Below, in pieces: positions 39,052 to 61,133 of a stretch of 64,000 nt of DNA. This stretch comes from Cyanidioschyzon merolae. Taxonomy: Eukaryota. The notes beneath the pieces were generated by a model. It was not told the DNA's origin, did no database searches, and saw only the letters and a list, made by a program, of their open reading frames with translations. The DNA lies in the NCBI GenBank assembly GCA_000091205.1, contig AP006500.2, one strand, 5' to 3'. Within the stretch, counting starts at the first letter, position 1. Each line of letters begins with the position of its first letter. A program made the translations under genes and the position numbers.

Positions 39052-39735
39052 TTACCAGTAAGGTTTCTTTTGCTCAGCATAGACTTGCTTTTGCTGATCC
39101 TTGGCACATACCTCCACTTTTTCATACTTCACACAAACGTTTTCCTCCTTAACGCATTTCTTGCCATAGGATTCGCAGTTCTGCACGAAGGAGATGCATT
39201 TGCCCTCTGCGTGCTTTGCACATACTTTCTTGTACTTGGCACATACCTTGACGGTTTCGTATGCGCTACCGTAACGCTTGCATTTGTTGTAGTCCGTCTC
39301 TTCAGCGATGCAGATCTGCACTTTCTTACAGAACTGCTTCGCTTGTTGTTGTTGTTGCTGTGGCGAAGACCAACGCTGGGCCCAATACTTGTCCTGCTGC
39401 TGTTGCTCCTCGACATGTTGGCAGTCTTCCTTGTAGCCGTACTTGGAACACTTCTTTCCATACTCAACGCAAACCTGCACAGGCTTCTTTTCATACTGAT
39501 ATTCAACACACTTTTCCTCGTGCTTCACGCAAAGCAGCTCGTATTCTGCGCAGACGTTCACGGGCTTTAGGCAGACGGCCTCGTACTTGGTGCAGTTGTA
39601 ACCGTACTGGACGCACTGCGTTTCATAATAGCACTTCTGCTTCGCTTCATTGGAGAGTGCCCATTGCGGTGCAACGATGACGAACGCAATCGCCAATAGC
39701 AAAATAGAGAAACGCAAGTGTCCTGGTTTCATCAT
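39052..39735 (-). CDS. Secreted Cys/Gln/Tyr/Lys-rich protein with heptad-spaced cysteines, family member 1 (~227 aa)
   Basis: ATG ATG at 39735/39732 (checked), then the signal peptide MMKPGHLRFSILLLAIAFVIVAPQWALS. The mature protein has block A, QKCYYETQCVQYGYNCTKYEAVCLKPVNVCAEYELLCVKHEEKCVEYQY...VCVEYGKKCSKYGYKEDCQ. A QQQQ/YWAQRW linker follows. Block B is QFCKKVQICIAE...KCKRYG...VCAKYKKVCAKH..KCISFVQNCESYGKKCVKEENVCVKYEKVEVC. It shares architecture with 42162-43073, 57223-59091 and 60204-61133. Confidence 0.75.
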   Translation of the reverse strand: MMKPGHLRFSILLLAIAFVIVAPQWALSNEAKQKCYYETQCVQYGYNCTKYEAVCLKPVNVCAEYELLCVKHEEKCVEYQYEKKPVQVCVEYGKKCSKYGYKEDCQHVEEQQQQDKYWAQRWSSPQQQQQQAKQFCKKVQICIAEETDYNKCKRYGSAYETVKVCAKYKKVCAKHAEGKCISFVQNCESYGKKCVKEENVCVKYEKVEVCAKDQQKQVYAEQKKPYW

Positions 39736-40559
39736 TGCAGCGTACGCTGATGCGGTGGTTTTCAAGCGCTTTCGTCTGAAAAACACCAATTTTTCCTCGA
39801 AATAAATGGTTACATCGGCCAGAGCTCGCAAAATCCCATGAACCGGACGCGCGTTCGATACGGGTGAGGTGAATCCCTGCATCTGCCGCATCTACCGCGA
39901 CCTGATGATGCGATTCCGCTAATCGGCGCAGATGAAGGAGCGGCCATACAAAGCCGTACCGGCGTATCAGCTTGCAGAGAAAACAATGCCCTCAATTCGT
40001 CAGCGTCGCATCTGCTGCGATGACAACGCGTACAGCGCCAGGAAGCTATTGCGGAATGCTCTACCAAGACCTGGTGCCTAGAACGCCGATGTACGACGAT
40101 GCCGCAGCCCCAGCGGGCATCCTTGTCCAGGAAACACGAGCGTCTTTCGTGCGTGCGTGCGTGCGTGCGCGGCTCTTTTGTTCTGGCATCATATTTGTGT
40201 ACATTCGTGTATGAGCGAAATGGAACGAGTCCCCGTAAATCGGGCGGACGCACTAAAGTTTAGGTCCCTTCCAGCTGTTATGAACACCAGTTTTTGTGGA
40301 CTTTTTCTGCGACTGCTTCCTCTGCCTTTCTTTTACCCCGGCTTTACATGCGTCGGTCTCTCGTCTCCCTCCACCTGCTTTAACAGGTATCGAAGGTTGT
40401 CGATACCGTCGTCTATCAAGGACAGTCGCTTCTTTCGTTTGTTGACAACGCGTTTCATGGACAGGTGGAAGCTGCGATGCATGCTTCGCTTGCCGGTTTC
40501 ATATCCTTTTTACACAGGCCTGGTACGCAATTCGCAGCGGTGACACTCGGCCGTGGTCA

Positions 40560-41110
40560 GGTGTTTTCATGAGACCGCAGCATCTACGTTTCCGAGGGTC
40601 GCCCTGTGGCGCGCGAACACTCGCTTCATCCCAAGATGAAAGCACGTTACCGGCACATATCGCTCTCGCCGATGCTCTTCTCCGTTTCCGCACCTGGTGT
40701 CGTGCTCGACGATCATGTGCCTCTTCTGAGCGATCATCTCTACGAGTGCTCTTTCCGCCGTGCATACAAGCGCGTACTTCTCGATTCTATAGAGGAATTG
40801 CGGAACGCGATGTTGTCCGCGATGGAACACTTCCCGGAAAGGGAATCCCGGCTGGAGGCGATGTCGAGAATTCTCCAATCCTTTTCTACACACTCCGTAG
40901 AAAGCGAAAACGCTCTTTCCACTGGATCTGAACGGTGCGATGCCTAAAGTCCAAGACGATTTCCCATGCAAACAGAGGAGACGGGAGCCTCTGGGAGCAT
41001 TTATCATGAGACGCGTTATGCTGCCGTCAAACGCCTTTTCCGCCATCGTCACAATGAGAGGAGGATTTGTCTTTTGAACGGGATAGATCATCTCGCGCCA
41101 CAAGTTCAGT
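40560..41110 (-). mobile_element. Decayed pogo/DDE_1-like transposon fragment (minus orientation)
   Basis: ORF 40567..41103 (-) gives ...ITRLMINAPRGSRLLCLHGKSSWTLGIAPFRSSG..., homologous to copy 1 (...ITIPLMGFASKGSLLFCLHGNVSWTGNRVIAVIASRG...). Confidence 0.5.
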
Positions 41111-42161
41111 GAACTTTCGGCATGAACGTGTACATAAGCCTTTAAGAGACGACGAGGATAATGTTTATCGTCAATCTGGTGAGACGATGCGCTGCACCCG
41201 CCGTTTGTGTTGGAACAGAATGATCGGTAGCCTAAAAAATGCGCGACTGGAGCATGGAAGCCGTAAGGAAATGAGAATGATAGAGCCTCATACGTGTATA
41301 TCGGGTAATCATATCGTTTATTTTACGAATACTTGTTCGATGGCGTCGCAAATTATCACGATTCCGGTGAGCTTACGAACTCCAGCGGCGGTCGGTCGAA
41401 AGGGCGGCTCCAAAAAGATGTCCAAATATCCTCGAAAGACGTGTCAATCCGTGACCCATTAATGCCGCACTTCGAATATCGAGGCTGCGCGCCTAAAACA
41501 GTTCGAAAGAATCGAAACAGAGGAAGAGAGCGAGCACCACAGTGCTCTATTCTGGTCTGACACCATCGCCTCGCCGTCTCGTGCGAGACACTGCGTTTCG
41601 CGGCATCGCCGGACGACTCGTGAACTGCTTCATTTTGTGCGTTGAAGGCGCCATTCGCGGAGCGATCCACCTCTAAAGTTGGATGCCCAACTCGAAGGCA
41701 TATGATGAAGAGCGTAACGCAGAAGACTGAGTTACAGCCCCTTCGGACTAGTCACCCAATCACGGGCATGGCGAGTGTCCTTCCTAGACAGGGTGTAGCG
41801 GCTTGTTTTCGTTGTACCACATCCATTTTATACTCGAAAGACAGATCCGCCGAGTCTTTCCACCGTTTCCTTTCTCTCTTAACGGCTATCGGCTCTGCTG
41901 TGCTGCGAGACCCCAACTTGCTCGCAGACTTTTGGCCCTTACCAAAGCACGTTCAATGCATGTCAGCTTCTACGAGCACACGCGGCATGCCCACACCTTA
42001 CGCATCCACCATACGAATGAACGCTGACCCATCAGGAACTTCCGTGGCGAATGCCCAGAACTCTACTGCACACGCGGTGTGCAACCTGTCCTTCGATCGT
42101 CGTGTTACGCTCCACCCGTCCCGCCATCTGTTCAGTCCGATAATAATGTTCGATAGGACCT

Positions 42162-43073
42162 TCAGCCCCACCATTGCATGTTGCCACCAGTGTAGTACTG
42201 CTGCTGCTGCTGCTGCTGCTGCCCTTTCTTAACTTGGGCGTACTGCTGCTTCTGTTGTTGTCCTTTCTGAAATTTGGCATACTGCTGCTTCTGTTGTTCT
42301 TGTTGCTGCTGCTGTTGCACGATCTGCGTAGCCTGTACCTGCTCTTGCTGAGCCTGTTGGCAAACCTGGACATTTTGATACTGCTGGCAAACCTGCTGGT
42401 ACCCTGTGCACTTCTGGCCGTACTGTGCGCATCCTTGCTCGTATTGCTCGCATTTGCCTTGTTGATACTGTGTGCACTTGTTCTCGTATTGCGCACACAC
42501 CTGTTCGGTTTGGTACTGCGTGGTATACTTCAGACACTTGTTCTTGTTCTGTTGGTACTTTGCGCACACCTGCTTGCAAACCGGCGTCTGCTGCCATCGG
42601 CGCATTGCGCCGTTCCATCCTTTCTTCTCCTGAACAGCCGCGGAAACCTGCTGCTTCTGAGGTGCTGGGGCAGGCGCAGGCTTCTGTGGTGCGACTTGTT
42701 GTTTTTGTTGCTGCTGCTGCTGCTGCTGCTGCTGAGCAACCGCCGATATTTGCTGCTGCTGCTGCTGCTGCTCGCAGCTAGAAGTGTATTCAACGCACTC
42801 CTGTGCATATTGTGCGCAGACCTGCACCGGCTTTTGCACAGTCTGGTACTGCACGCACTGCTGTTCCTGCTTCACGCACTCCTGCGCATACTGCTTGCAC
42901 TGCTGAATAGGCTGCAGGCATACCTTCTGATAACCAGTGCACTGGTTGCCATACTGAACACACTGCTGCTGCGTACTGCACTGTTGGTTCCAGGCAAACA
43001 CACCGGTTGTTACGGCACAGAAGGCCCAGACCAGAAGCACGACACGAGCAAAACTTGAATATCTAGACGACAT
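42162..43073 (-). CDS. Secreted Cys/Gln/Tyr-rich protein with heptad-spaced cysteines, family member 2 (303 aa); contains poly-Gln tracts encoded by (CAG)n
   Basis: ATG at 43073 (checked), signal peptide MSSRYSSFARVVLLVWAFCAVTTGVFA. Block A, QQCSTQQQCVQYGNQCTGYQKVCLQPIQQCKQYAQECVKQEQQCVQYQTVQKPVQVCAQYAQECVEYTSSCEQ, has Cys at 7-residue spacing. Poly-Q linkers follow. Block B is ...QTPVCKQVCAKYQQNKNKCLKYTTQYQTEQVCAQYENKCTQYQQGKCEQYEQGCAQYGQKCTGYQQVCQQYQNVQVCQQ. The tail is Q/K/Y-rich. The + strand ORF 42174..43058 (poly-Leu) is the antisense artefact. Confidence 0.8.
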   Translation of the reverse strand: MSSRYSSFARVVLLVWAFCAVTTGVFAWNQQCSTQQQCVQYGNQCTGYQKVCLQPIQQCKQYAQECVKQEQQCVQYQTVQKPVQVCAQYAQECVEYTSSCEQQQQQQQISAVAQQQQQQQQQQKQQVAPQKPAPAPAPQKQQVSAAVQEKKGWNGAMRRWQQTPVCKQVCAKYQQNKNKCLKYTTQYQTEQVCAQYENKCTQYQQGKCEQYEQGCAQYGQKCTGYQQVCQQYQNVQVCQQAQQEQVQATQIVQQQQQQEQQKQQYAKFQKGQQQKQQYAQVKKGQQQQQQQQYYTGGNMQWWG

Positions 43074-43539
43074 AATATGCTACCAATCTCTAGGAACGTT
43101 CTAAGGAACAAGACCAATAAAGTTTTTACTGTGACCATGCAATCCATCAGCCGGCAAGCCCATCACCCGGCCCCATGGGACACGTGAGCATAAGCCACAA
43201 ATCTGGCTGAACAGAGCCCAGACACGTTTCGCTTCCCCGCTCGATACGATTCTACAGGCCATCCAGACGCGATGCACCGGGAACCTGTGGCGCAGAGGCA
43301 CGCACAGAATGTCCGCATTGAGATCTCGGATCCTGTGACGGTGGTGGCGGGACGTGTCCGCGGCGCTTTCGGGTCCGTGTCCGTGTCCCGATTCATATCG
43401 AAGGGAAAAACAGCGCATCGCGTCGTGTCCCGGGCGTGCGGCGGACGCGACTCGTGAGTTTAGGGACAAAAATGGACATAAATAATCCGCGACCATAGGG
43501 TAAAAAATTTCTACCCACAGCTGGCCTCCAGGCTCTTTC

Positions 43540-44920
43540 GACTAGACCCCGGTATCGACTCAAGTTTCTCTCTCCACCCTCCAGCTTGCGAGGCTGTATC
43601 ACGAAATTAGATAGGAGGAGCCGCTCGGGTCTCGTACTGAGCACGGCACGTTGTCTGATAGTGATAGCGGCGTTGAAGTCTAGGTTCGCGAACTCCCTGC
43701 GTGGTTTGACGCTGGTCGAACCCACGTATACAAGGATTCCTCGAAGTGGTGCCCTTTGCGCCGCTACAGTCTCTTCATAGTCATGTCGCGCAAACTTTTT
43801 CCCGTCTATCTCACCTCTTCTACACCCGAGATCTGGGGGAGAAGAGGATTTATTGTTCTTTGTCGAACCCGGCGATGAAGGCCCTCTAGAATCCCCGAAT
43901 TCCATGTCCATGCAATCCTTTGGATTTTTCCTTCAACATAAACGAACCTCTATGCACTTAGGTGAGGACCTTCCCGGAGCGAGAAGGACTTGCAGTAGAA
44001 ACACGACATGTGCCTGGGTGTCTCCATGTGCTGAACGCCTGAGCGATTCACCCAGTGGAACGATCGTTACGTTTCACGATTGAAAATACTCGCTCGACGG
44101 AATTGAACCACTGGGAGCACGGAGGAAGGAGAAGCAGCCCTGCACCCCAATTGATTGGGAAAAAATCTCGAATGCAACGGGAATGGTGAAATACTAAGTT
44201 GTCTAACAGACCGACGTGTCCAAACGTCAGGGGAAAGTCTTCAATAGTTCGACAAAGTGATTGGTGCTGTTGTATGAGCCTTCTCTACGAACGAAATTGA
44301 GGCCGACAAATGAATCCGCTGCAGCTAGAATAGATGATAATGTAGTCGTTCTCTTCGAGTTCGATCATATATGCGATGAGCTCCCTCACCGCGAATATCC
44401 ATACATGCGCTGACCGTACCGTTCGAAAGAAGTCTCATCGGATCAAAAAACAAACCGACGTTTCAGTGCTTCTTACCGATCGAGACGTTCGGGGAACTCC
44501 GGGGTTGCGATTTCGATGGAAGATAACCGTGCGTGATGTAGGACTCGCTTCTAGCGACTGTATTCAAGTGTTCTCGGGGCCACACGAATAAGTTGTTGAG
44601 AGGCAGAGACGCCGGTGGCAGCCACTATCTTCGCTTTCGCCTTGCATAAGGTGATGAACAGGTCGCATTCTGCCATGGACCGCAAGCACGCTTTGAAAAC
44701 GTCAGTTTTGGGCGCGGAACGTATATACTTGTTTCTTTCTTTCATTATCCCTCAACAATCTGAGTACTATGGTATAACTGACGTGATTGAGGAATGCAGT
44801 CCTGTATGGGATGTTCAGTAAAGAATACATCCCACTGCGATTCATATGCAACATATTCGGTTCATTGCCTCGTGATTTCGATCTCCAGCCCTACACCGCA
44901 GCTGGAGTGAAACAAAACTG
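43540..44920 (-). mobile_element. Tc1/mariner-type degenerate element, copy B (~1.4 kb)
   Basis: Alignable with copy A throughout: left end 43540-43700 against 17440-17600, the internal degenerate transposase region, and right end 44750-44920 against 18690-18850. The ends are inverted-repeat-like (agtttctctctccaccctccagc... against the reverse complement of ...gctggagtgaaacaaaac). Confidence 0.55.
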
Positions 44921-47617
44921 AGTTGAACCACTCTAAAAGATCACAAGCACAATCTTTTAACATCTATTATGTGAAACGCGCCTAATCAAAGGGCAATTAG
45001 CACAGAACTGCGGAGTGTCCTCGTTGGTATATAGACAGGACTGAGGCGTACTTGTATCCACAGCTGCTTTCTGGAGTGTGTTCACCCGCGGCACTTGGGG
45101 CGACACTGTCTCGCCTCCGTGTGCGACGGCGACGACGGCTTCTGTTCGCGTGACCTTTTAGGATCAAGCGCCTGATACCGACACACGTCAACTAGGTGCT
45201 TCCCTCTCCTGGCGTCGCCGTACCTTACAGATGACCCGGATTCAATGACCTATCCGTCCAGCGCGAGATTTCTTTCTTGGCGGCTCTCGAAAAGTGGAGA
45301 CCAGGGCGTGTCAATAGAAAACTTCTTGTTCCGCGGTGATGAGCTCCCACACTCGACGGTTGCATATAACTTAGCCAGCAACAGAGCTGTCATAGCCGCA
45401 CTGGGCATTCCGCAGAAAACCAGCTCCCGCAGTGAATTTGTTGACATAGACGTTGCGGGGCTTTCTCTGCTTTCCCTTCGTCCACGAATGGAGCCCTGCA
45501 GGAATAAAATCGGGGAACGGTCTCCTTTTGCCAAATAGTTTACGAGCTAGGCAAAGCTTCAGTCATAGCACATGCTGGCCAGAGGCTTGGCGTTTTGTCA
45601 AATAGTTCTCGACGCAATTTGCATCGATGGCACTTTCAATTACAGGTCCGCAGCGGCAAATTGCTGTTCGGAGGCGCGAAAGCCATGAACGGCACAGCCG
45701 CGCCAGATCGGAACCGTGAATGACGGCTTCACAATTTCAGTCGAGAAGGATTCGTTCTTCGCAATGCAACATGGATGGATGCGTCAAGTTCTGCGAGGAT
45801 GCCGGCGGTGTACACGGATGCAATGTGTCGGCGCGTGTAAGTCGCCAGGAACGGGCGAACAGAGAACGAGCGAGACAATGCTGTGCATGACACGATGCGG
45901 GTGCATGAGGCGATACCGTGCGCGCTTGACTGCTTTCATCACGACGTAGATTCCGATCTGTTTCGTTCAAACGAAAGCTGTCCACCATCACGGGATGGAT
46001 AAAGGCAGTAGGCACAAAAGCGCTGCTGCTCCATCCTTGTGAATTCGTGTCGCGTCCCTATTGCTGAGCGACGCATACCAGAATAACAGTCTCGGTACGT
46101 TTTACCGAAGGGGCAGCATCACAAGCGCCGGTGATCTAGTTCGGAATCGAAAGCGCTGCGAAACGTGAACCGCTGCGGTCACGCGCGAGCGGGGCCTCCT
46201 CTCGTATTTCAGTTTCGAAACGAACGCGCATCAGAATATCTCATTGAGTCACAAACATGATCACGACAAGCTTTAGAGCGCCGCACAGTCAGAGCTAATC
46301 ATCTCCGCACGGGAGAGGACTAATCTTTCGAGTCAGAATGCATCCATACACGGTCTTCTGTCCGATATTGAGTGAATCTGGACATGCTTTCACAAAAATT
46401 GTCTGCAATCGGAAGGCCATCTCTGGTGAGTCAATGAATATTTTGAAGCGAAACGAGGGAGTGTATGTTGTCCTTCGTTCGCCCGGCGAGTAGGGCTCGA
46501 AACCTCCCAGCACCACGCGCCGCTCTGATCGCTGTACAGTTATCGTACCGCCAGCTGGTCGATGCAACTGCGCTGGTGCGCGTATCGTAGCACCTTGCCG
46601 TTCAAAGCGTCCGAGGAAAGCCAGTCAAGTATCAAAGGTGGAATGCGGGTCGCTAGACCGAGCACTCAGTTACGCGAACAAGTTACTTTAGGCCAATCCT
46701 CTTCTTCACATTTCCAGAGCGTTTTCGGACACTCCGCTTGCCGGTGCCCTTTACCCGGGGCCGTATGGAGATAGGCTTTCGCTGTCGCTGGATAGACTTT
46801 GATGTGCTTTTCGAGCAGGCGCGTAGAACCGGGTGCACAAGTGACCAACGAAGGCGACGTGGCCTACCGGAGTTTCCTTCCCGGGTCAGCGGCGCGAGGA
46901 AGATCTTCTGCGCAAGACCGTACTTTGACATACAGTCGTATGGTCCTTGGAACAAAGGCGTCGTGCAAGTACTCATGATCTTGCTTACTAAGCCAATGAA
47001 AGTCCGACGAAGCTGACAGAAACTGTGCGTGCAGGGCAACCAACCGAAATAAAAAGTGCTATACCAGCAGCAGCACTCTTGCTCCGGAACGCCGGAATCT
47101 ATTCTGTCACCCGAGCAGTAAAGCAGCTCCTGCTATGGGTATTTCCGAGAATACCGAAATAGCTTCCCAAGCGGTTGTTCAGCTCCGCCCTAGCCTAGAA
47201 CTACAAGGAAAGCCCCCCTTTCTGTGAAGAAACGTTTCTGCTCCAGCCAGCCAACATTTGACTCACAAGCGCGCGCATTCAGTGCGCTGCAGCTCCGATG
47301 AGACCAATATCTTACCATTTATGACATTTTCCGCCTAGAATTGCAGCAAGCGGAGTGCTCGCCCGGCGCGGCGCAGCGCGCCGTGTGTGGAGGCGTTTGG
47401 CGCCAAAGCGCTGCACAGCGCGCGACCGCCTTCGCAAGGGTAGCGTGCAACGCTTCTCTAAACGCTCGGGCGTTGCGTCCGCTGTTTGTACTGGATGACG
47501 ATCACCGAGTGCCAAACCTAGTGGCAGGCGATCAATCTGTACAGTAAGAACTCGCAACTGCTTTGCAAGTATCCATAAAAACCGAGTGGTTCTGATTCTG
47601 TGCAGACTCCTTGTGGT

Positions 47618-48676
47618 ATGGAGGTTCAGGCACCAGAAAGTGCGCGCGAACAACCTGCGGAAACTCGCCCTTCGCAGCGATTAGCTGTACTCTTTAATAG
47701 CTTTGCAACTCGAGACAAACAGAAAGTTGTCAACGACCGGGTAAACGCTGCTGCTCTGCTCAGCGCTTTGGAATCAGGGAACGAGTCGGCAGCAGCTGTT
47801 GTGCCCGCCATAGTTGAGCAGTTAACCGGTGGAGCGATACGAACTACGCCACTGGAACACGGCCATGGTTGGCTCGTTAGACCATCGAAACCCATTCTGC
47901 CCCAAAGTGTGTACGTGCCTCTGCGATCTTTTTCTTCCAAATATCGCTCGCGTAGTTCGGTATCACCCAATGGTCAACTGCCTGAAACATTAAAATTCTT
48001 TTTCAGCATTGGAGTTGTCGTGTACTGTGAACGCTGTACCGTTCGCGTCACGGAACCTACGACTGGTGCACCCGTCAAACATGAACCCGTGGAATATATA
48101 GGCCTGGCTGCTTTCGAAGCCGCGACACCTGATCGGCATGATTCGATCCCGGACGATGCGGGGCGCTCAGGCACCGAAGTGTGTCTTCAGATTGCACGGC
48201 ATTGTGAGCGGCACGCGGCGAACGAGATTCCAGTAGCTCCGAGGGATGTCGTGCTTTTCGCTGGCACGTACGACAGCAGTATCTGGAAGAGAGAAACGCA
48301 TGGGCCGAAGGAGCATCTGTCCCGGCCTGTACGAAGAGTTCCATGCATAACTAACCCAATTTTATGCTTACTCGGGAGAGATATCGATGCCGTAATCTGC
48401 TCTGGACTAGACGGCGAGAACGAGCCCACGCGGTGCGCAGCGAGGCATCTTTGCGAGCGCGTCTTTGATAGACGTCTCTCGTCGCAAAGGTGGAGCGACA
48501 CTCGTTGCCGCTACTGTACTCGTAGACTTTTTGAGAAAAGTTCCAGAACTCGCCGGCCAGAACTTAACGCTGGGATCGTCCCCCGGGCAGGATCTCAGCT
48601 TCGGCGCCTCGAGAGATGCCACATAAGAAAGATCGCTCAGGAGCGCGATAGAACGCTCTCGACATCTCGCCGTTGA
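47618..48676 (+). CDS. Hypothetical protein (353 aa from the first ATG); no recognisable domain
   Basis: Long ORF with GTG at 47600 and the first ATG at 47618. The composition is moderately complex. There is no motif I can assign. Confidence 0.3.
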   Translation: MEVQAPESAREQPAETRPSQRLAVLFNSFATRDKQKVVNDRVNAAALLSALESGNESAAAVVPAIVEQLTGGAIRTTPLEHGHGWLVRPSKPILPQSVYVPLRSFSSKYRSRSSVSPNGQLPETLKFFFSIGVVVYCERCTVRVTEPTTGAPVKHEPVEYIGLAAFEAATPDRHDSIPDDAGRSGTEVCLQIARHCERHAANEIPVAPRDVVLFAGTYDSSIWKRETHGPKEHLSRPVRRVPCITNPILCLLGRDIDAVICSGLDGENEPTRCAARHLCERVFDRRLSSQRWSDTRCRYCTRRLFEKSSRTRRPELNAGIVPRAGSQLRRLERCHIRKIAQERDRTLSTSRR

Positions 48677-51120: not shown

Positions 51121-53150
51121 ATGAGTATTATAAAGGCGCCGTTAGGACTAATGCATTTGGAGAAGGATACGTGTCGCAACGTGACGGACATCAAAACAAT
51201 TGACGTTCTGGAAGAATTTTTCAACAAGACCTTCACCCGCCACCTGATGCTTGGCACCGGGGAAACGTCGAGTGGAAATGAGCGAGCGCATGCCCTCCAC
51301 GAAAATCACGCCGAATACCGCATCAGCGGTACTCGATCCAGGGGCGACTTGTGTATTGACACCTGCGGGGCAGTCAGGTACTTCACGAACCTAAAGATCC
51401 ATTTGACCGTGAAACTCGAATGCTTCACGATACGCGTCCTGTTTGCGCTGTACTCGGGCCTCTCGCGCACAGGAATATGGGTCATTATCGATGGCATCAC
51501 GAATGATCGCCAGCACGAACAGGAGACTGAGCTCGTCGAAGAGAAGATATCACACAGGAGAACGAATGAGGCTTCTGTCATCCGTGCGGCTATGCAAGAG
51601 CATCGTGCGGACTTGGTGCTCGCGCATCCAGCAGAAAAGGTATCAGATATGAAAAAAGATGAAGAAAGATGCTGTTCCCGAGCCCTGCGCTATTTTACGC
51701 TTTTGGGCCGGGATCTGGAACGCATGGCCGAAAAGCAGCTGAGTCGCGGAAAAATGAAGATTCGGAGGAATGGAAGGCTTTCCTAATGGGTACGCGCCTC
51801 AACGTCGTTCCGATATGCAGCGCCAACTCATATTTCGTGGCAGTCTGCTCCAGCGTCCCTCATGGCATCGTGAGGGATATCTGTCCGGAGTTCGATGCAG
51901 GCAAGAAGGAGTTCATGGGCCAAAACCGGGAAACTCATTGGAAGAATATCTTCGATTTCAAACGTCTCAATACGGGCAAGAAAGGGTATTCACGGGGACC
52001 ATCGGAAGCGATGGGGCAGCCATGTGTGTACATTACCGGCGGCTGGGGGCGGATCGTCCTATCGTGCCTTCGGCTTCGCCCTCGCCGAAGCATGAAGAAA
52101 AGAAGGAGGCAGATCCTGCGACTCAGGAGGTGCAGGATAACGAGCTTGTCGCTGGCTCGGCGAAGCATGAAGAAAACAACAAGGCGGATCCTGCGACACA
52201 GGAGGTGCAGGATAACGAGCTTGTCGCTGGCTCGGCGAAGCATGAAGAAAACAACAAGGCGGATCCTGCGACACAGGAGGTGCAGGATAACGAGCTTGTC
52301 GCTGGCTCGGCGAAGCATGAAGAAAACAACAAGGCAGATCCTGCGACTCAGAAAGTGCAGGATAACGAGCTTGTCGTTGGCACCGACCCGGGGAACACAA
52401 ATATCGTTACCATCGCTGCACCCAAGCGTGCGGAAGATGGTCCTGACGTTAGCTCACGTCAGAAAGACATGCTTCTTTTAAAGTTCTAAACATAGAAATA
52501 CCATCGAGAATCGGGAATACTGAATACGAGGAAGAAAATCGAGACGTGGAATGCCGCAGTGCAAGAGCATCTGGAAGCTTTGAGCGAGCTGACGAGCCGA
52601 GGAGCGGACTTTCAGGCTTCTCGGAAATCCATGAAAGTTCGTGTTGCTCATTGGGAGGCGCTGTGGGATGAGTATCCAAAGCCCCGGTGGGCTCGTCAGC
52701 GACTGATCTTGTGCTGTGGGAAACAGGGAGCGTTCGCCAACTTTTTCAATGCGTTCGGCGCCCTCAAAGAGGACGAGAGTCAGAGGCTCGCAATAGCGTA
52801 TGGAGCAGGGCGCTGGATGACCCAAAAAGGGTGTACACAGCTCCATCGACAAGAGCGTACAAGAAGTGTGCACATCGTTTTGTCACAATACCTATCGATG
52901 AGTTCCTAACGTCCTATATGCACCATGAGCTGGGGTGCACACTTCCGAGCGTCGAGACGGAAAAGCGTCAGCGGGGCCCTGAGGATATAGCAAAGTACGG
53001 AGCGCTGACAGAGCAGCAAGTAGAAAGTAGGGCGAAAGTTCCTGGGCTACGTGCACTGGTGCGTACAACCAGTGATGGCAAGAAACGTATAGCGTTTGTC
53101 AATCGTGACTCGAACGCCGCTATCAATACCAGGAGATGTACGGTGATGGA
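51121..53150 (+). pseudogene. TnpB/Fanzor-like RuvC-fold nuclease relic, interrupted by frameshifts and stop codons
   Basis: The three RuvC motifs occur in the right order but across shifted frames. RuvC-I (G.D.G....A) is LVVGTDPGNTNIVTIAAPK, ending the ORF 51770..52489, with the stop TAA at 52487. RuvC-II ([DN]E.[YF]TS) is TIPIDEFLTSYMHHELGC, about aa 65-84 of ORF 52687... RuvC-III (RD.NAA.NI) is IAFVNRDSNAAINTRR, about aa 135-150. The zinc-finger CxxC pairs are degenerate. A 75-bp x4 tandem repeat lies inside the relic. The relic abuts the IMP peptidase gene in the same frame. Confidence 0.45.
52087..52386 (+). repeat. 75-bp tandem repeat x4 inside the TnpB/Fanzor-like relic
   Basis: The unit gaagcatgaagaaaacaacaaggcggatcctgcgacacaggaggtgcaggataacgagcttgtcgctggctcggc is nearly identical across copies. 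In the RuvC-I frame it encodes (AGSAKHEENNKADPATQEVQDNELV)x4. The last copy runs into ...QDNELVVGTDPGN (the RuvC-I motif), so the repeat is a duplication of the RuvC-I lead-in. Confidence 0.8.
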
Positions 53151-53364
53151 GACGAGACCCCCGGAGTTGATACGATCCAACTTTACGCGGCAGCCTCTCA
53201 AGGTGAACTTACCCAGGGACAAGTTGGAACCAGTAGTAGGTGGCCGGTCCAAAAAGACCGGGAGGCGTCTGCACGTCAGCGTACCGACATCCACACTATC
53301 GGCGTCGTGTATATGCGTCGGTATACCTGTTTGGTCTGTGGTAGCTGAGAAGCATGGCCCGTGG

Positions 53365-54099: not shown

Positions 54100-54700
54100 A
54101 AGAGGTTTTGTGGGCGTTTTCTTCGAGTACGTCCTTTTCCTCGCTCTTGTCTCCGGTATTGTATACGTCGAACGATGCATGTTGTCTTGTTGGGTTGCCA
54201 GTAACCGAGGCATGTCGACGGCAGCGGTAGAGTCGCGGTATCGCCTCTTCGGGCAGTTGTGGACGCGTTTCATGCCCAGGCAAAAGTTGCCATCGATGGG
54301 TCCTCTGTATGTGTATGCAACGTCGGTGCTGCGTTTGCAGCGGTGACAAACTTGGGTGTGTTCCGGCGTTCCCATGCGTCCCCAACGTACGTTCTCCCTC
54401 TCGGAAGGGCGCTTTGTGGTACCTGTACGCCAGCTCCATCACCCACCATATGGTATCGACGGGTGCAGAGGGCTTGCCCCGAGATCGTCCTCCGTTTCGG
54501 CGCCTGGTGCCGTAAACTGCGATGACGGGCTCGTTCTGGTCGATCGCCTCGGCGAGCACCAGACGCGCTGCAAACACAAGTGCAAACGCCTCCTCTCGAT
54601 GACTCAACATGCGCTGGCTTGCGCGCTCTTCGCTCCCTGAGTACGCTTTTGGCGAAACATGGCGATGATCGTGACGAGCATCGCGTTGCCGTACCTACTC
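54100..54700 (-). mobile_element. Decayed pogo/DDE_1-like transposon fragment (minus orientation)
   Basis: Minus ORF 54092..54610 gives ...ARLVLAEAIDQNEPVIAVYGTRRRNGG..., homologous to ...SVLDDMSSLNKRLIEAYGNGPGNEG (19504..19698) and to the 30300-30740 copy. At the nucleotide level, 54470-54570 is similar to 30560-30660. Confidence 0.5.
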
Positions 54701-55039
54701 GTGGGCATTGTGTGTCCACGTGCTTCACTTGTGTGCGAGCGTGCAGTCACGGCTTCTGGGACTCGCTGCTGCTTCCGTCGCTTGCTTGCTGGACGGACGT
54801 TTTTCGCGTTCATTATCTTCCGCTGATACGAAGAGTACAGGCGCGCTGGCAGAATGCACGGCTGCTGGTCCAAGTCAAGTATGCGGGCACAAAACCCGAG
54901 CAGCCATAGCTTCGCCTGTTGCCACCAGGGGTATTGGGTCTCTGTTTGGGTAAAAGAGGAGCGCAGGTGCAGGGGTCCGCACTGCATGCTCCAGGCTGGT
55001 GCAGAGTGCATTGGAGAGCATCCTCGCGAGGCGATGCAT

Positions 55040-55370
55040 TTGTACGGGTCGTTGCTCGTCTGCGTAGTAGCTCGTCTGTGCTGTATAGGTCGTTGCTTGT
55101 CTGCGTAGTAGCTCGTCTGGGCTGTACGGGTCGTTGCTTGTCTGCGTAGTTGCTCGTCTGGGCTGCACGGGTCGTTGCTCGTCTGCGTAGTAGCTCGTCT
55201 GGGCTGTACGGGTCGTTGCTGGTCTGCGCAGTAGCTCGTCTGGGCTGTACGGGTCGTTGCTGGTCTGCGCAGTAGCTCGTCTGGGCTGTATAGGTCATTG
55301 CTCCTCTTCGTAGTAGCTCGTCTGGGCTGTACGGGTCGTTGCTCGTCTGCATAGTAGCTCGTCTGGGCAG
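55040..55370. repeat. 41-bp tandem repeat x~8 (gggtcgttgctcgtctgcgtagtagctcgtctgggctgtac)
   Basis: Successive tcgttgct starts lie at 55131, 55172 and 55213 (period 41). Because 41 is not a multiple of 3, three units give a 41-aa peptide period (QPRRATTQTSNDPYSPDELLRRxATTRTAQTSYYADxQRPV). All three minus-strand frames are open across the array (ORFs 54604..55545, 54813..55352, 54875..55168). Confidence 0.8.
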
Positions 55371-57222
55371 GGGTGCTTTTCAGCTCTGACGGTGTCATGA
55401 ATCGTATGGGAGGTTCGCTGTTGTCCTTGTTGATAATGGCGATATTGGCCGATACGCTTACGCAGTCGGTCTCGACGAAAGACGCAACCTCTCCTGGTCG
55501 TATTGCGAAGCTGGTATTCCCGCAGTTTTTCCTTCCCGCTTGCATCTATTGCTTGCGAGGCATGGTGTCGCCACTGCCGAGCGGTGTTTCCTCGATGACC
55601 GTGAAGAAAAGCGGATTCGACTTGAGCACCGAATCGATTATTTGACGTGACAAATCCAGTCGACTTTCGGAACGGGCCTGCGAACAAGGCATCAAGGGGT
55701 GACGTCGAGGCTGTCTGCTCGTCAACCCAACAGAGCGCATTGCTGCGTCCACGAGTTGCCCTGAATCGGAAAGATCGAAAACTTGAAGCATGTGAGATTC
55801 GGGTATGCCACACATAAGGAGAGAAGAAGCGAAGCAGCTTGCAAATATGAGTTGGATATCGATTTCTGTTTTTTTACGGACCCGTGTTCGGGGGTATCGC
55901 GAATCATTCTGACTCCGATGAAGGAACGCATTCCAGCGGTAAATCGTTCAAGGTAACGCTCCGAAAACACGACCAAGAATCCTAAAACTACGCGTGAACC
56001 CGTATGCCCATAGTGCTGCACTTGGAATCTTGATGCCGCAGATCCAGAGAAAAACGTTTGGATGTATCGCAAGCTAGGAAGAGCGCAAGCAGCTCAAAAC
56101 TCCATGATAACGTAATACGGTTCTAGAGACCTGCTCTGGGGCCGCGCTCCCATCCGCAGAGGCAGCGCACGAAAGCAACAGCACTAGCCAAAAAAATGAG
56201 CTCGAACGGGTTCACATATCGGCATACATTGCATTACCGATTTCGCATGGCGTGGAACTGGGGAGAGAGCATCCCAATATGGAAACGTACTCAGCCGGGC
56301 ACGCGTCTGCATCCGCAGCATATGCGCAGGTCCCGTGAAAGGACCACCTGCGGCGCCGTGCGGCCCGCGCTGCACCAGGCCAGCTTCTCTGACAGCCTAA
56401 ACAGCGCCAATGCTCCCGTGACCTGGACTACGCTCAAGGTCTAGCTCCGCAGCAAACGACGTACCTGCTGTCGCTCGCCGCCCTGAACTAAACGCACGCA
56501 CGCGTACGCGTCCTCGAGTTGGGCGCTTCACGAAAGCGACCCGAGCAGCCGCAGGCTGCAAAACGTGCTCCCTTGTTGCCTAGCGCTTTCTCACGAGAAT
56601 AACCTCGAACCGGTACGCCTTCGAAGCAAAGAAAAGCGCCTGCGAGCTCGACCTCGTATGCAGCCTATAAACGAGGCTCCTGGGGTGCTCGTTATCGAGC
56701 TTCAGTGCACGCATCGATACAGCCCCCGCCACGTTTCCCACCGAACAAAGCACCGTGATCTCTGTTGCATCGTCATGCACCAGTCACGTATCAACCTCTG
56801 CGAAAAGCAAGCTCGATGCATACAACCAACAACAACCGTACGCATCAGCAAGCAAGCATCGAAGCAGATGGCAACAAACAGTGCCCTTGGCGCGTGCTGC
56901 TGCCTCCTTCGGGAGATTGTTTTCGGACAACGCAGCAGCGATCGCGCGCGCGCGCCTCGAAGGCCATCAGCTGCAATTCGACGCTGCCTCGAAAGTGTGC
57001 GTTCGATCCGCACTACGGCGGCGCGAGCTGTCACGACTCCGGTGACCCCCAGCGAACAGTTCGCATCGAGATAGAAGTCGAAGTTTGCAACGTGGCAGTG
57101 CCAGCTTGCGCTATAGCATGGCCCCGGAGGAGGCGCCAGTCCAATGCTTCCAAAGCAATTTGTGTTTGGACTTGTTCTAGCTCGAACAACATCTGTAATC
57201 CGATTGTATCTCATTGAAAGCC

Positions 57223-59091
57223 ATGAACATGAGGCTGCTCTATCTGGCCGCTATTGTAGTGGTCCTGGCGGCGACGCTGCTGCAAAGTGCGGCCGCCATG
57301 GACTACTATCAGAAGGATATGAAACAGAAGAAGCAGTGCTACACAGTCGAGAAGTGTGTGAAGCAGGAGCGCAAATGTATCCAATATGAGAAGGTTTGCA
57401 CGCAGCCGCAGAAGAAGTGCATCCAGCACGAACTTATCTGTGTGCAGCAAGAGAACCAGTGCAAGCAGTACGAGCCCGAATACCAGAATGTTAAAGTCTG
57501 TGTTGCGTACGAGAAAGAATGCGTGCAATGGAACTATAAGGATGAGTGCCAGCAGGAGTACGTCCAACAGAACAATTACTTCTGGGGCATGAGATGGTCC
57601 AATGAGAAGAAGAAGGAGCCTGTCAAGAAACAGTGCAAGAAAGTTCAGAACGGCTGCGCACAGTGGCAGGAGAACAAGAACAAGTGCGCACAGTATGGCG
57701 AACAACAACAGAAGATCGGACAAAAGTGCTCCGACTATGTCCAGGTGTGCACGAAGACGAAACCCGGGAAATGCATCCAGTATCAGGAGACCTGCAACAA
57801 CTATCAGCAGCAGTGTGCACAATGGGCTAACGTGTGCCAGCAGTACAAGAAGGAGATCGTCTGTCCTGAACCCAAGAAGGAGCCGCAGAAGAAAGTTAAG
57901 CAAGAGCAGTACGTGAAGAAGGACAACTACGTGTGGCGAATGTACGATCAAAAGAAAAAGTATGATCAGAAAAACGTAGAGCAGCAACAGAAGAATGAAT
58001 GGTTCCAGCAGCAGAATGAGAAGAAGCAGTACTATTGGCAGCCACAGAAGACCCAGTACTACAAGAAGAATGATTACAAGAAGAATGTTTACAACGACCA
58101 GAAACAGTACTACTGGGAGCCACAGAAGACCCAGTACTACAAGAAGAATGATTACAAGAAGAATGTTTACAACGACCAGAAACAGTACTACTGGGAGCCG
58201 CAGAAGACCCAGTACTACAAGAAGAATGACTACAAGAAGAATGTTTACAACGATCAGAAGCAGTACTACTGGGAGCCGCAGAAGACCCAGTACTACAAGA
58301 AGAATGACTACTACCAAAAGAAGGACAACTACGTGTGGCGAATGTACGATCAAAAGAAAAAGTATGATCAGAAAAACGTAGAGCAGCAACAGAAGAATGA
58401 ATGGTTCCAGCAGCAGAATGAGAAGAAGCAGTACTATTGGCAGCCACAGAAGACCCAGTACTACAAGAAGAATGATTACAAGCAGAATGTTTACAACGAC
58501 CAGAAACAGTACTACTGGGAGCCGCAGAAGACCCAGTACTACAAGAAGAATGACTACAAGAAGAATGTTTACAACGACCAGAAACAGTACTACTGGGAGC
58601 CGCAGAAGACCCAGTACTACAAGAAGAATGACTACAAGAAGAATGTTTACAACGATCAGAAGCAGTACTACTGGGAGCCGCAGAAGACCCAGTACTACAA
58701 GAAGAATGACTACTACCAAAAGAAGGACAACTACGTGTGGCGAATGTACGATCAAAAGAAAAAGTATGATCAGAAAAACGTAGAGCAGCAACAGAAGAAT
58801 GAATGGTTCCAGCAGCAGAATGAGAAGAAGCAGTACTATTGGCAGCCACAGAAGACCCAGTACTACAAGAAGAATGACTACAAGAAGAACGTTTACAACG
58901 ACCAGAAACAGTACTACTGGGAGCCGCAGAAGACCCAGTACTACAAGAAAAATGACTACAAGAAGAATGTTTACAACGACCAGAAACAGTACTACTGGGA
59001 GCCGCAGAAGACCCAGTACTACAAGAAGAATTACAATCTATACGGAAAGAAAGAAAATCCATACGTTCCGCAGTATTACTACTGGGAGTGA
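57223..59091 (+). CDS. Secreted Cys/Gln/Tyr/Lys-rich protein with heptad-spaced cysteines, family member 3 (622 aa), with a long Tyr/Lys/Gln-rich C-terminal tandem-repeat domain
   Basis: The track start 57214 is TTG; the first ATG is at 57223, giving MNMRLLYLAAIVVVLAATLLQSAAA (signal peptide). Block A is QKKQCYTVEKCVKQERKCIQYEKVCTQPQKKCIQHELICVQQENQCKQYEPEYQNVKVCVAYEKECVQWNYKDECQQ, with Cys at positions 4,10,17,24,31,38,45,58,65,74. A YFWGMRW linker follows. Block B is QCKKVQNGCAQWQENKNKCAQYG...KCSDYVQVCTKTKPGKCIQYQETCNNYQQQCAQWANVCQQY. Then come 3 x 134-aa repeats of Y/K/Q/N-rich sequence. Confidence 0.8.
   Translation: MNMRLLYLAAIVVVLAATLLQSAAAMDYYQKDMKQKKQCYTVEKCVKQERKCIQYEKVCTQPQKKCIQHELICVQQENQCKQYEPEYQNVKVCVAYEKECVQWNYKDECQQEYVQQNNYFWGMRWSNEKKKEPVKKQCKKVQNGCAQWQENKNKCAQYGEQQQKIGQKCSDYVQVCTKTKPGKCIQYQETCNNYQQQCAQWANVCQQYKKEIVCPEPKKEPQKKVKQEQYVKKDNYVWRMYDQKKKYDQKNVEQQQKNEWFQQQNEKKQYYWQPQKTQYYKKNDYKKNVYNDQKQYYWEPQKTQYYKKNDYKKNVYNDQKQYYWEPQKTQYYKKNDYKKNVYNDQKQYYWEPQKTQYYKKNDYYQKKDNYVWRMYDQKKKYDQKNVEQQQKNEWFQQQNEKKQYYWQPQKTQYYKKNDYKQNVYNDQKQYYWEPQKTQYYKKNDYKKNVYNDQKQYYWEPQKTQYYKKNDYKKNVYNDQKQYYWEPQKTQYYKKNDYYQKKDNYVWRMYDQKKKYDQKNVEQQQKNEWFQQQNEKKQYYWQPQKTQYYKKNDYKKNVYNDQKQYYWEPQKTQYYKKNDYKKNVYNDQKQYYWEPQKTQYYKKNYNLYGKKENPYVPQYYYWE
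57913..59040 (+). repeat. Higher-order tandem repeat: 402-bp unit x~2.8, each made of a 168-bp segment plus 3 x 78-bp subunits (26-aa E/QPQKTQYYKKNDYKKNVYNDQKQYYW)
   Basis: The same-frame ORFs 57995..58381, 58397..58783 and 58799..59203 are offset by exactly 402 bp and nearly identical. Within each unit the 78-bp motif cagaagacccagtactacaagaagaatga(t/c)tacaagaagaatgtttacaacga(c/t)cagaa(a/g)cagtactactgggagcc(a/g) recurs three times. Confidence 0.85.
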
Positions 59092-60203
59092 AAATCAGCA
59101 GGGAGCCACCGAACATCTGGGAGCGTCTGAAACGGTGGGGGCACGGGAAAGTTTACGGATTGGCGATTGCGCCGCTACGTACAGGTTAGACTCTTGCCAG
59201 TAAACCGATAGAGTACACCAGAATGCAGTTTGCGCTTATGGCGGGTACCTCGATCGTGTCAGGTGAGTTGCAAGGCATAGGCGCCGTGGTCTATATCGAC
59301 ACAGCATGCATGCTGTGTCTCTGCGAAGATCACCGGATCCGGCGGACGTTGCGGGCACCATAACTTAAACCACGACGGCAACATGTTACCGATATGAACT
59401 GTCATCGGTGCCAGCCCGTGACCCCCCAATAGCAGCCGCATTCAAAACAGTTCCTCATTGCAGCGACCGTGCCGCACGCATTACAAGCACCGTCAGTGAT
59501 CGTATATGCCTGCTCACGAACCCGTCGATGACTAGATTTTTTTCTACTTTCCATATACCTAACGAAACTCCTGCTCACTAGTGTGAGGCATACCTCATCG
59601 GCCCACGCGTGCGACGCCGCGAACGCTCCCCGTGTGCTACAAACATCGCGGGGTTTTGCGCCTGCCCTGTACACACGCCGGGTACGGTCGGAATGGTGCA
59701 CAGCAGAGGGCAGCAGCGTCGCGGCCAGCGCCGGCGCGTAACGCGGGAGATCATTCGACGTGAGCTCCGCAACCCCCCGATACCTGATCCCCTGCCGCAC
59801 GCTGCAATGCACATCGGCTCGTCAGCGCGCGGCAGGGCACGCTTGCGTCAACGCGGCGTCGGACACGTGTCCTTCATCGATCGGCGGCGGTCTGCGACGT
59901 GTACGCACCGCGGTCGATACGCGCGCAAACAGATTTTGCAGGCATGGGACACGACGCCGACGCCGTCGTCGAAGGGAAACGCGTTCCTGACCATTCGTCG
60001 ACTTTGCCGGGAAACATGCGATGCCGCATTCGGAGCATGCACTGCTGCCGGTGACGTGTCCCATGCACGCCGACGGCATGGCACGGCGACATCAAGGATG
60101 CAGCCTCTCCGAGCGTGCGACATTGGTGTTGAAGGCGTAGCATTCGAGTAGCGAGCGGTATTCATTCACGCGTAGAGCAATACAACTGCAACCTTAGGAA
60201 AAA

Positions 60204-61133
60204 ATGATCAAGAAAACTGTTTTGTGTTTTGCAGTAGCGCTGGTGCTTTGCATCGTAGCACCGATGAAGGGTGCGCAGGCCTGGTACAACACCGTAGCAC
60301 AGCAGGAGCAGTGCTATCAGAAGCAGGTGTGCACTCAGTATGACAACCAGTGCACAGGATATAGCAACGTATGTTTGCAGTGGGGCGAGCAGTGCAAGCA
60401 ATACGAGCAGGTGTGCACAAGCTGGGAAACCAAGTGCCTTGCCTATGAGGATGTTTACAAGACCACTCAGGTCTGCGCCCAGTACGCCCAGACGTGCGCA
60501 CAGTGGAACTACAAGGAGGACTGCCAACAGGTCAAGCAGGAGCAGAAGCAATACTATACTGCCGTGGAGACGCCAGTTGCAAAACAGGACTACAAGAAGA
60601 AGCAAGACTATGTCAAGAAGCAGGAGGATCAGCAGAAGAAGGACCAGTACATCTGGGGCCAAAACGGCTGGCGCTGGTACAACCAGGAGCAGCAGCAGAA
60701 GCAGCAGGTTCAGGTGAAGAAGGTCATCGAGACTCCGATCGCCACCCAGACCTGCAAGAAGGTGCAAGCTGGATGTGCTCGCTGGCAGCAGGACACCTCC
60801 AAGTGCGAGCAGTGGACTACAAACAAACAGAAGATCGGCGTTCGGTGCGCAAACAGCGCTCAGGTATGCTCCAACTACACACAGGGCAAGTGCGCTCAGA
60901 GCGAGCAGGTCTGCCTGAGTTATGGCCAGAAATGCACGGGCTACCAGCAAGTGTGCAAGTCGTACGGCTGGCAATGGGTCTGCCAGCAGGTTCAGGCCAC
61001 TGAACAGTACCAGCAGAAGCAGGTTTACGGCCAGAAGGAAGTATACGGCCAGCAACAGAAGCAAAAGTACCAGAAGGACCAAAAGCAGTACCAGGATCAG
61101 CAGAACTACTGGCAGAAGCAGTACATGTGGTGA
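60204..61133 (+). CDS. Secreted Cys/Gln/Tyr-rich protein with heptad-spaced cysteines, family member 4 (309 aa)
   Basis: ATG at 60204 (checked), signal peptide MIKKTVLCFAVALVLCIVAPMKGAQA. Block A is QQEQCYQKQVCTQYDNQCTGYSNVCLQWGEQCKQYEQVCTSWETKCLAYEDVYKTTQVCAQYAQTCAQWNYKEDCQQ. The linker has YIWGQNGWRW. Block B is QTCKKVQAGCARWQQDTSKCEQWTTNKQKIGVRCANSAQVCSNYTQGKCAQSEQVCLSYGQKCTGYQQVCKSYGWQWVCQQ. The tail is Q/K/Y-rich. The minus-strand poly-Leu ORF 60162..61082 is the antisense artefact. Confidence 0.8.
   Translation: MIKKTVLCFAVALVLCIVAPMKGAQAWYNTVAQQEQCYQKQVCTQYDNQCTGYSNVCLQWGEQCKQYEQVCTSWETKCLAYEDVYKTTQVCAQYAQTCAQWNYKEDCQQVKQEQKQYYTAVETPVAKQDYKKKQDYVKKQEDQQKKDQYIWGQNGWRWYNQEQQQKQQVQVKKVIETPIATQTCKKVQAGCARWQQDTSKCEQWTTNKQKIGVRCANSAQVCSNYTQGKCAQSEQVCLSYGQKCTGYQQVCKSYGWQWVCQQVQATEQYQQKQVYGQKEVYGQQQKQKYQKDQKQYQDQQNYWQKQYMW

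Follow-up and report, generated by a model that had tools for sequence, protein, structure and literature searches.

A conserved family of secreted, heptad-cysteine proteins at a Cyanidioschyzon merolae locus, with candidate structural proteins of the cyanidialean cell wall

Secreted, repeat-built and disulfide-rich proteins make up the acid- and protease-resistant, mainly proteinaceous protist walls that contain the apicomplexan oocyst-wall proteins COWP/OWP or the spore-coat proteins of Dictyostelium, and in these systems paralogous families serve walls that are specific to a stage of the life cycle. Here we describe a family of genes, P1 to P4, in a 64-kb stretch of chromosome 18 of Cyanidioschyzon merolae (hereafter the window), for whose products a comparable role is proposed. 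The Cys patterns of COWP/OWP and of the spore-coat proteins differ from those of the family, a Pfam scan gives no indication of homology, and we know of no mirror-image two-arm architecture in either group.

Elastin and collagen, the substrates of lysyl oxidase (LOX) (Kagan & Li, 2003, as cited in PMC13353863 and PMC6508830), offer a second point of comparison. As is proposed for the family, they are extracellular and fibrous and carry Lys-rich cross-linking segments; LOX/LOXL is secreted by these algae, and a substrate relation to the family is hypothetical. The family differs in lacking Gly-X-Y repeats and hydrophobic elastin domains, its rigid part being the proposed disulfide ladder. The wall of the Cyanidium type has been known since 1968 to consist mostly of protein; its structural protein has not been named, nor have the LOX substrates been identified (PMC6508830, PMC13353863).

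The four genes and their relatives

An earlier, sequence-only reading of this DNA had proposed a cluster of four genes encoding secreted, Cys-rich proteins. All four are present as intron-less open reading frames (ORFs) where that reading had placed them, but the starts of P1 and P3 need correcting. The mechanically called P1 ORF reaches 39891, and the internal Met at 39735 is the most likely start, since it alone places the signal peptide at the N-terminus and since the Cyanidiococcus orthologues (P0003/P0004) start at the equivalent Met. For P3, the mechanical ORF list starts at TTG 57214; a start at ATG 57223 matches the gene calls on metagenome contigs. P4 is identical to CMR328C of C. merolae 10D, on chromosome 18. 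The features of the four genes are the following.

39052–39735, minus strand: P1 gene, 227 amino acids (aa); signal peptide at 39652–39735; 17-aa tail ending in KKPYW
39421–39633, minus strand: P1 block A (arm A), 10 Cys, spacing 6-7-7-7-7-7-13-7-9
39331–39420, minus strand: P1 linker, carrying YWAQRW
39106–39330, minus strand: P1 block B (arm B), 10 Cys, spacing 6-10-13-7-8-7-7-7-9
42162–43073, minus strand: P2 gene, 303 aa, 33% Gln; 65-aa linker rich in Gln, Pro and Ala; 65-aa Q-rich tail ending in MQWWG
42774–42980, minus strand: P2 block A, 10 Cys, last gap 7 instead of 9
42360–42578, minus strand: P2 block B, 10 Cys, first gap 4 instead of 6/7
57223–59091, plus strand: P3 gene, 622 aa from ATG 57223
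57337–57549, plus strand: P3 block A, 10 Cys
57550–57633, plus strand: P3 linker, carrying YFWGMRW
57634–57864, plus strand: P3 block B, 10 Cys
57865–59091, plus strand: P3 tail, 408 aa, rich in Lys, Tyr, Gln and Asn
60204–61133, plus strand: P4 gene (CMR328C), 309 aa; 76-aa linker with YIWGQNGWRW; 49-aa Q/K/Y tail ending in KQYMW
60312–60524, plus strand: P4 block A, 10 Cys
60753–60983, plus strand: P4 block B, 10 Cys

A six-frame profile scan of the window finds exactly these four members and no remnants.

The Cys register and the two-block architecture that had been read from the sequence hold up on alignment: in a MAFFT alignment 20 Cys are invariant across P1 to P4, and likewise in 7–12 family members. 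Each arm measures about 70 residues. The spacing in block A is 6-7-7-7-7-7-13-7-9 (with a last gap of 7 in P2) and that in block B is 4/6/7-10-13/14-7-8-7-7-7-9, and the arms are joined by a linker that is variable except for a conserved aromatic YWxxRW motif. The motifs quoted earlier are also present (WNYKE/DDCQQ, CKKVQxGCAxWQ and the linker sequences YFWGMRW, YWAQRW and YIWGQNGWRW). From 127 units the heptad consensus is C-[V/A/T]-Q-Y-[E/Q/G]-[Q/K/N]-[V/K/Q], in which position 1 is Cys in 100% of units and position 4 is Tyr in 55% (plus F, W or H); Gly and Asn are enriched at positions 5–6, and the fourth heptad holds a conserved Pro.

The predicted signal peptides were found again in all four proteins by a heuristic scan (not SignalP), as a basic n-region, then a hydrophobic core some 12 residues long, then a cleavage site of the AxA type; the same kind of scan detects no other hydrophobic segment in P1 to P4. 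The extreme composition was borne out as well, with maxima of 33% Q, 19% K and 15% Y, and C at 7–9% in the short members. Lys content ranges from 8 to 21% across the family, and the tails, which are rich in Lys, Gln and Tyr and end in Tyr/Trp, contain KK and YY doublets. Every member is net basic, the number of basic residues reaching 126, and none contains an Asp-Pro bond. The mature N-terminus is usually Trp or Tyr directly after the cleavage site, and the C-termini are aromatic too (…PYW, …QWWG, …YYYWE, …QYMW). The family can thus be defined by a signal peptide, a 10-Cys arm A, a YWxxRW linker, a 10-Cys arm B and an aromatic C-terminus. This description fits P1 to P4 and eight relatives, with a single exception, the coordinately shortened Cyanidium protein Cd_229.

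The sequence-only reading could not place the proteins in a family, and the searches agree. No Pfam family reaches its cutoff on P1 to P4: the best scores are 10.5–17.2 bits against cutoffs of 21.2–24.5, for PF01508 (Paramecium surface antigen), PLA2_inh, Toxin_30 and Somatomedin_B. A search of PDB sequences with the family profile returns only noise (lactoferrin, E 0.07), and a Foldseek fold search gives no match beyond weak ones with E >= 1 and template-modelling (TM) scores <= 0.15 (aerolysin, lysenin, anthrax PA). Membership in the extensins and hydroxyproline-rich wall glycoproteins, with their Ser-Pro(3-5) repeats and YxY cross-link motifs, is not supported: Pro is at 0.5–5.9%, no SPPP motif is visible in the member sequences and the Pfam scan is negative. 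In a full-text literature search no paper names CMR328C, CMR322-327C or CMX178C. The family is a previously undescribed one, secreted and conserved, without relatives in sequence or fold. Its functional kind is not new, as Cys-rich cross-linked wall proteins are known elsewhere; what is new is the architecture and the lineage.

Further members were expected in related taxa, and they occur in Cyanidiococcus and Cyanidium. A profile search of 5.8 billion proteins retrieves just five family clusters, all annotated 'hypothetical' and all from Cyanidioschyzon merolae, Cyanidiococcus yangmingshanensis or Cyanidium caldarium. An exhaustive hidden Markov model (HMM) search of 1.84 billion representatives yields 22 matches, about six of them true members, all cyanidiophyte; the others are translated 21-bp tandem repeats or unrelated heptad proteins. 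P2- and P3-type sequences were not retrieved by the protein searches because they are absent from the protein collection searched. The genes also occur on hot-spring metagenome contigs and are intact in every such contig examined. The syntenic locus of Cyanidium caldarium holds four members, of 225, 229, 464 and 281 aa, adjacent to the Peptidase_S26, Rft-1, Nas2 and glyoxalase genes that also accompany the cluster in the window, and a fifth member (P0027, identical to CDCA14G3897) lies seven genes away from this four-gene core. P1, P2 and P3 have clear orthologues on a Cyanidiococcus-type contig. Orthogroup OG0000206 of Hirooka et al. (2026, PMC13353863) comprises CdcalHa5_g3944/46/47, CcyanHa1_g3596/g4537 and CMX178C and no Galdieria genes; according to the orthogroup table, CcyanHa1_g3596 lies in Cyanidiococcus at a locus other than the four-gene core. 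By its position, CMX178C must be P1 or P2.

These relatives overturn the earlier suggestion that the cluster arose by recent local duplication. The window paralogues are only 39–49% identical to one another, and in a tree each groups with its own orthologue, the identities being 66% for P1, 80% for P2 and 76% for P3 with Cyanidiococcus, 49% for P3 with Cd_464 and 47% for P4 with Cd_281. Since every paralogue has an orthologue at a syntenic locus, the duplications predate the split of Cyanidiales and Cyanidioschyzonales, dated to about 500 Ma (review, PMC13062707); they are ancient (about 500 Myr), not recent. Between Cyanidioschyzon and Cyanidiococcus, the proportion of non-synonymous differences (pN) is 0.16–0.21 and that of synonymous differences (pS) 0.70–0.91, which is saturated, and every core Cys is kept. 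As pN is far below pS and the core Cys are retained, the genes are functional and under purifying selection. That the orthologues in two other genera keep every core Cys despite saturated synonymous sites also establishes that the similarity goes beyond composition.

Several retrieved sequences were set aside. P0029, P0030, P0032, P0039 and P0042-44 are translations of 21-bp tandem repeats and not relatives. The metagenomic protein P0028 (196 aa) matches P2 over residues 1–111, up to the poly-Gln, and continues into unrelated sequence resembling a CSL/DPH3-like zinc finger; it is probably an assembly chimera at the CAG repeat. Four unrelated metagenomic proteins (P0031, P0034, P0035 and P0038), which may be convergent designs, likewise have consecutive Cys at 7-residue intervals and Tyr at +3 (CxQYGTQ, CxxYExx). 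One of them, P0031 (L013, 343–840), has a signal-like N-terminus and lies beside a PEBP gene on a densely packed, prokaryote-like contig. P0031, with its prokaryote-like contig, and the unplaced P0034 are not counted as members and may be convergent heptad-Cys proteins.

Fold of the two arms

The antifreeze protein of Tenebrio molitor (TmAFP), a secreted, disulfide-bisected beta-helix, resembles the structure proposed for the family in its short and strictly periodic Cys repeat, disulfide ladder and elongated all-beta rod; its coils, TCTxSxxCxxAx, are 12 residues long, place a Cys at every sixth residue and are closed by disulfides within the coil, whereas the family has a period of 7 and, as modelled, two long strands. 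The granulin/epithelin module, in which parallel disulfides pin stacked beta-hairpins, shares with the proposed structure a consecutive disulfide ladder along a two-layer beta structure and a small hydrophobic core, but it packs 12 Cys, with CC doublets, into about 55 residues and several short hairpins, in contrast to the single Cys spaced by 7, the arms of about 70 residues and the one hairpin considered here. The stems of pore-forming toxins (aerolysin, lysenin, anthrax PA), whose Foldseek matches are insignificant, are likewise very long two-stranded antiparallel hairpins; unlike the proposed ribbon, these hairpins depend on oligomeric barrels for their stability, carry no disulfide ladder and are amphipathic to suit membranes.

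AlphaFold2 (AF2) was run on mature P1 with a 7-sequence alignment. The predicted local distance difference test (pLDDT) is about 90 over both blocks, and the linker and tail are disordered. According to DSSP, the model contains only two unbroken strands, residues 7–79 and 106–182, which span the first to the last Cys of each block. As two uninterrupted strands of 73 and 77 residues can pair only with each other, the model amounts to one giant antiparallel hairpin, and it is from this layout of strands that we infer the antiparallel pairing of arm A with arm B. Block A modelled alone, as a control, falls to a pLDDT of 55, the five models spanning 31–55. We consider that the structure has a slightly better than even chance of being a ten-rung, disulfide-laddered, two-stranded beta-ribbon with inter-arm disulfides. 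In such a ribbon, arms A and B would zip together antiparallel over a length of about 25 nm and would be stapled by about ten inter-arm disulfides joining A_i to B_(11-i), with the YWxxRW linker as a loop at one end and both aromatic chain termini together at the other.

A natural variant bears directly on the pairing. The Cyanidium paralogue Cd_229 is 77% identical to Cd_225 and differs from it by two separate deletions, one of 27 aa with 3 Cys in arm A and one of 30 aa with 3 Cys in arm B, on either side of a retained centre with an FWYRRW linker. The deleted segments are mirror partners, yet they are non-homologous in the alignment of the A/B duplication (A7-9 versus B3-5). Because 7+7 Cys cannot all pair within their own blocks, inter-block disulfides are required in this protein. 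The P2 lineage has likewise shortened the loop-proximal gap in both arms, from 9 to 7 in A and from 6/7 to 4 in B. The spacing of arm A read forwards also mirrors that of arm B read backwards, the single 13-residue gap included, in all 11 members with twenty Cys.

Each 10-Cys block might instead be an independent module, a solenoid or a stack of beta-hairpins closed by intra-block disulfides, with the two blocks derived from an internal duplication and not paired with each other. The heptad regularity of the Cys recalls disulfide-bisected beta-helices such as TmAFP, the mirror symmetry taken alone is statistically weak, and hhalign relates blocks A and B with a probability of 96.7% (E 4e-10). 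This last similarity is confined to the heptad run and may reflect a shared repeat unit. The AF2 model shows no turn within either block, the confidence for block A alone is low, and the odd number of Cys per block in Cd_229 follows deletions that are mirrored rather than homologous. The family also has no TCTxSxxCxxAx repeat and does not conform to a solenoid with an even number of Cys per domain, and purely local pairing of the TmAFP kind is excluded because the 7+7-Cys variant exists. We therefore regard separate modules as quite unlikely, and of the 'solenoid or rod' originally envisaged it is the rod, in the form of the AF2 hairpin, that is favoured.

The heptads could also be alpha-helical, with Cys at a and Tyr at d, forming disulfide-stapled helical bundles or fibres. 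The pattern C(a)-x-x-Y(d)-x-x-x does agree with an a/d heptad, positions b/g being hydrophobic, and the profile search picks up the coiled-coil-like CxxYExx proteins P0035 and P0038. However, the AF2 model is all-beta at a pLDDT of about 90 and contains no helix; the fourth heptad carries its conserved Pro and positions 5–6 Gly or Asn; and gaps of 6, 8, 9, 10 and 13 break the heptad phase. Gly, Pro and Asn together reach 7–14%, compared with 3% in P0035/P0038, and Chou-Fasman propensities are beta >= alpha, although these arguments, like that from the conserved Pro, are weak. A coiled coil is, in our estimation, very unlikely.

Some observations weigh against the paired ribbon. The AF2 alignment comprised only 7 sequences and the predicted TM score (pTM) is 0.33, and secondary-structure propensities are weakly beta. 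An odd period of 7 does not suit a regular antiparallel ribbon, so that one bulge per heptad would be needed. The mirror symmetry of the Cys spacing is marginal in a permutation test (p 0.02–0.13), because most gaps are 7, and was discarded as a stand-alone proof.

Proposed role in the cell wall

C. merolae 10D is a wall-less haploid, whereas the natural form is a walled diploid (PMC13353863). Cyanidiophyceae possess no CesA/Csl and hence no cellulose synthase (PMC13353863), and their wall, which is thought to be proton-tight, is 50–55% protein (Bailey & Staehelin, 1968, via PMC13353863). The guess of extracellular-matrix or cell-wall material made in the sequence-only reading fits this picture. 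Genes for secreted proteins are strongly phase-biased in these algae. A secreted lysyl oxidase dominates in diploids; within the class it is shared by Cyanidium, Cyanidiococcus and Cyanidioschyzon and absent from Galdieria (PMC13353863). LOXL has been proposed to cross-link unknown wall proteins (Tomo et al., 2018, PMC6508830). The phyletic pattern of the family is that of lysyl oxidase, with the same three genera and none in Galdieria.

Taken together, these data make the family a strong but circumstantial candidate for the cyanidialean wall protein and for the lysyl oxidase substrate. We put at about even the chances that P1 to P4 are ancient paralogues encoding secreted structural wall proteins, that is, disulfide-laddered rods with Lys/Tyr tails that lysyl oxidase could cross-link. 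Their disulfides would form in the endoplasmic reticulum, after which the rods would be secreted and built into the cellulose-free, largely proteinaceous wall of the diploid phase. Thiol-disulfide exchange needs a thiolate, and for this reason the disulfides would be kinetically locked at pH 1–3. Protonated Lys residues would give the wall a fixed positive charge, which could help to exclude protons. Finally, the secreted diploid-specific lysyl oxidase would cross-link the rods through their Lys-rich (and Tyr-rich) tails and linkers into an insoluble network.

The tail of P3 is a candidate cross-linking domain. It consists of 78-bp units (QKQYYWEPQKTQYYKKNDYKKNVYND) nested in a higher-order repeat of 402 bp x 2.8 with 99% identity (window 57916–59031). 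The P3 orthologues all have long Lys/Tyr/Gln repeat tails, with repeat units that differ (QKQYYWEPQKTQYYKKNDYKKNVYND, KQYYWQPKKQDNKKNYYDQKDQ, VETKKPKYYVQQTKK), and across contigs P3 measures 328, 354, 462, 488 or 622 aa, a variation that represents either true copy-number polymorphism or assembly collapse. Dityrosine cross-linking had been envisaged earlier alongside a transglutaminase route. Class III peroxidases are absent from Cyanidium, Cyanidiococcus and Cyanidioschyzon (PMC13353863), which makes peroxidase-driven dityrosine less likely; the secreted, diploid-specific enzyme that is documented is lysyl oxidase.

Two points tell against this assignment: the diploid or wall specificity of the family is one that we infer, and the link to lysyl oxidase, drawn from co-occurrence and composition only, is hypothetical. 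The proteins may be secreted without bearing load. They could serve as an adhesive or as the matrix of a mat, as a factor of the mother-cell wall or of hatching, or on the surface of haploid cells or gametes. Tails of Lys- and Tyr-containing repeats resemble mussel-type adhesive proteins, and these repeats evolve fast and vary in copy number. The cores, in contrast, are strongly conserved over roughly 500 Myr, unlike typical gamete-recognition proteins, and the family is co-distributed with the protein wall and lysyl oxidase. In nature the populations consist of walled diploids, and the copies on the hot-spring contigs examined are all intact. CMX178C is among 219 genes that were added only with RNA-seq that included diploids and had been missing from the annotation based on haploid expressed sequence tags (ESTs) (PMC13353863). 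A non-load-bearing role accordingly appears unlikely. A check of short metagenome contigs revealed no poly(A) or transcript-like ends, and a look-up of P0020 gave genomic contigs only.

The high Cys content, in a habitat rich in toxic metals (As and Ni tolerance is discussed in PMC13353863), could also be read as a sign of secreted proteins that detoxify As, Hg or other metals in acid hot springs. The Cys count is, however, strictly even, the positions are invariant and the loss in the two arms is matched, as is typical of structural disulfides; P1 to P4 contain no CxxC or CC motifs; and the proteins traverse an oxidising secretory pathway. Heavy-metal tolerance, moreover, is equal in walled and wall-less phases (PMC13353863). 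Metal or metalloid binding is highly improbable.

A more far-reaching version of the wall proposal is conceivable but rather doubtful. The ribbon would then be the principal load-bearing, acid-proof and proton-excluding polymer of the wall and have an experimentally unseen fold; its tails would be cross-linked by a horizontally acquired lysyl oxidase, and arm A and arm B of different molecules would possibly pair into covalent head-to-tail polymers.

Surroundings of the genes and implications

Upstream of the genes, no k-mer is common to all four; the only shared element is a 12-mer, ACGTGTCCCATG, composed of an ACGT core and TCCCATG, at P2 and P4.

43174–43185, minus strand: ACGTGTCCCATG, about 100 nt upstream of the P2 start
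60054–60065, plus strand: ACGTGTCCCATG, 150 nt upstream of the P4 start
59943–59954, minus strand: inverted copy of ACGTGTCCCATG with one mismatch, upstream of P4

Allowing <= 1 mismatch, there are 3 occurrences in 64 kb compared with 0.29 expected, and all three lie 100–260 nt upstream of P2 or P4. TCCCATG beside CACGT also precedes the Cyanidium P4 orthologue, at -129, and an inverted version stands about 100 nt ahead of P1. Tentatively, ACGTGTCCCATG could be a common cis-element through which the genes are co-regulated.

For C. merolae, the 14-kb interval that separates the gene pairs (43.1–57.2 kb) is poor in genes and holds only a conserved 358-aa ORF at 47600–48676 (orthologue at L010, 4404–5435) and the S26 peptidase; the Cyanidium counterpart of this interval contains Iron_transport, S26 and ABC transporter genes. 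The Peptidase_S26 ORF (53.2–53.96 kb) has an in-frame N-terminal extension of about 240 aa that is absent in the orthologues of Cyanidium (171 aa) and Cyanidiococcus (199 aa). A likeness of this extension (52687–53300, plus strand; IDEFLTS ... FVNRDSNAAINTRRC) to the RuvC motifs of TnpB/Fanzor found no support in Pfam and PDB sequence searches. Together with broken ORFs at 51121–52489 and a 75-bp x 4 tandem repeat (52081–52381), the region has the look of a degraded insertion. Further tandem repeats occur at 55041–55368 (41 bp x 8 with 90% identity), inside the gene-poor interval just described, and at 7983–8205 (77 bp x 2.9). The flanking 1–38 kb of the window carry ordinary housekeeping genes, including those listed here.

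10093–11796: NUBPL/ParA Fe-S P-loop NTPase
15192–17225: Peptidase_M3
20262–21977: zf-MYND protein
27242–28375: HSF-type DNA-binding protein

The family provides concrete, testable candidates in algae whose haploids can now be transformed and mated, and it opens the question of how a eukaryotic envelope survives pH 0–2 at 40–55 °C. A role in the wall would explain why intact and selected genes of the family, which had no apparent function, are present in the wall-less laboratory strain 10D. For structural biology the proteins possibly represent a new disulfide-ladder beta-ribbon architecture, and for materials science and biotechnology an acid-stable protein scaffold. If the more far-reaching version of the proposal is true, a LOX-substrate system like that of elastin and collagen would have been assembled independently in an alga.

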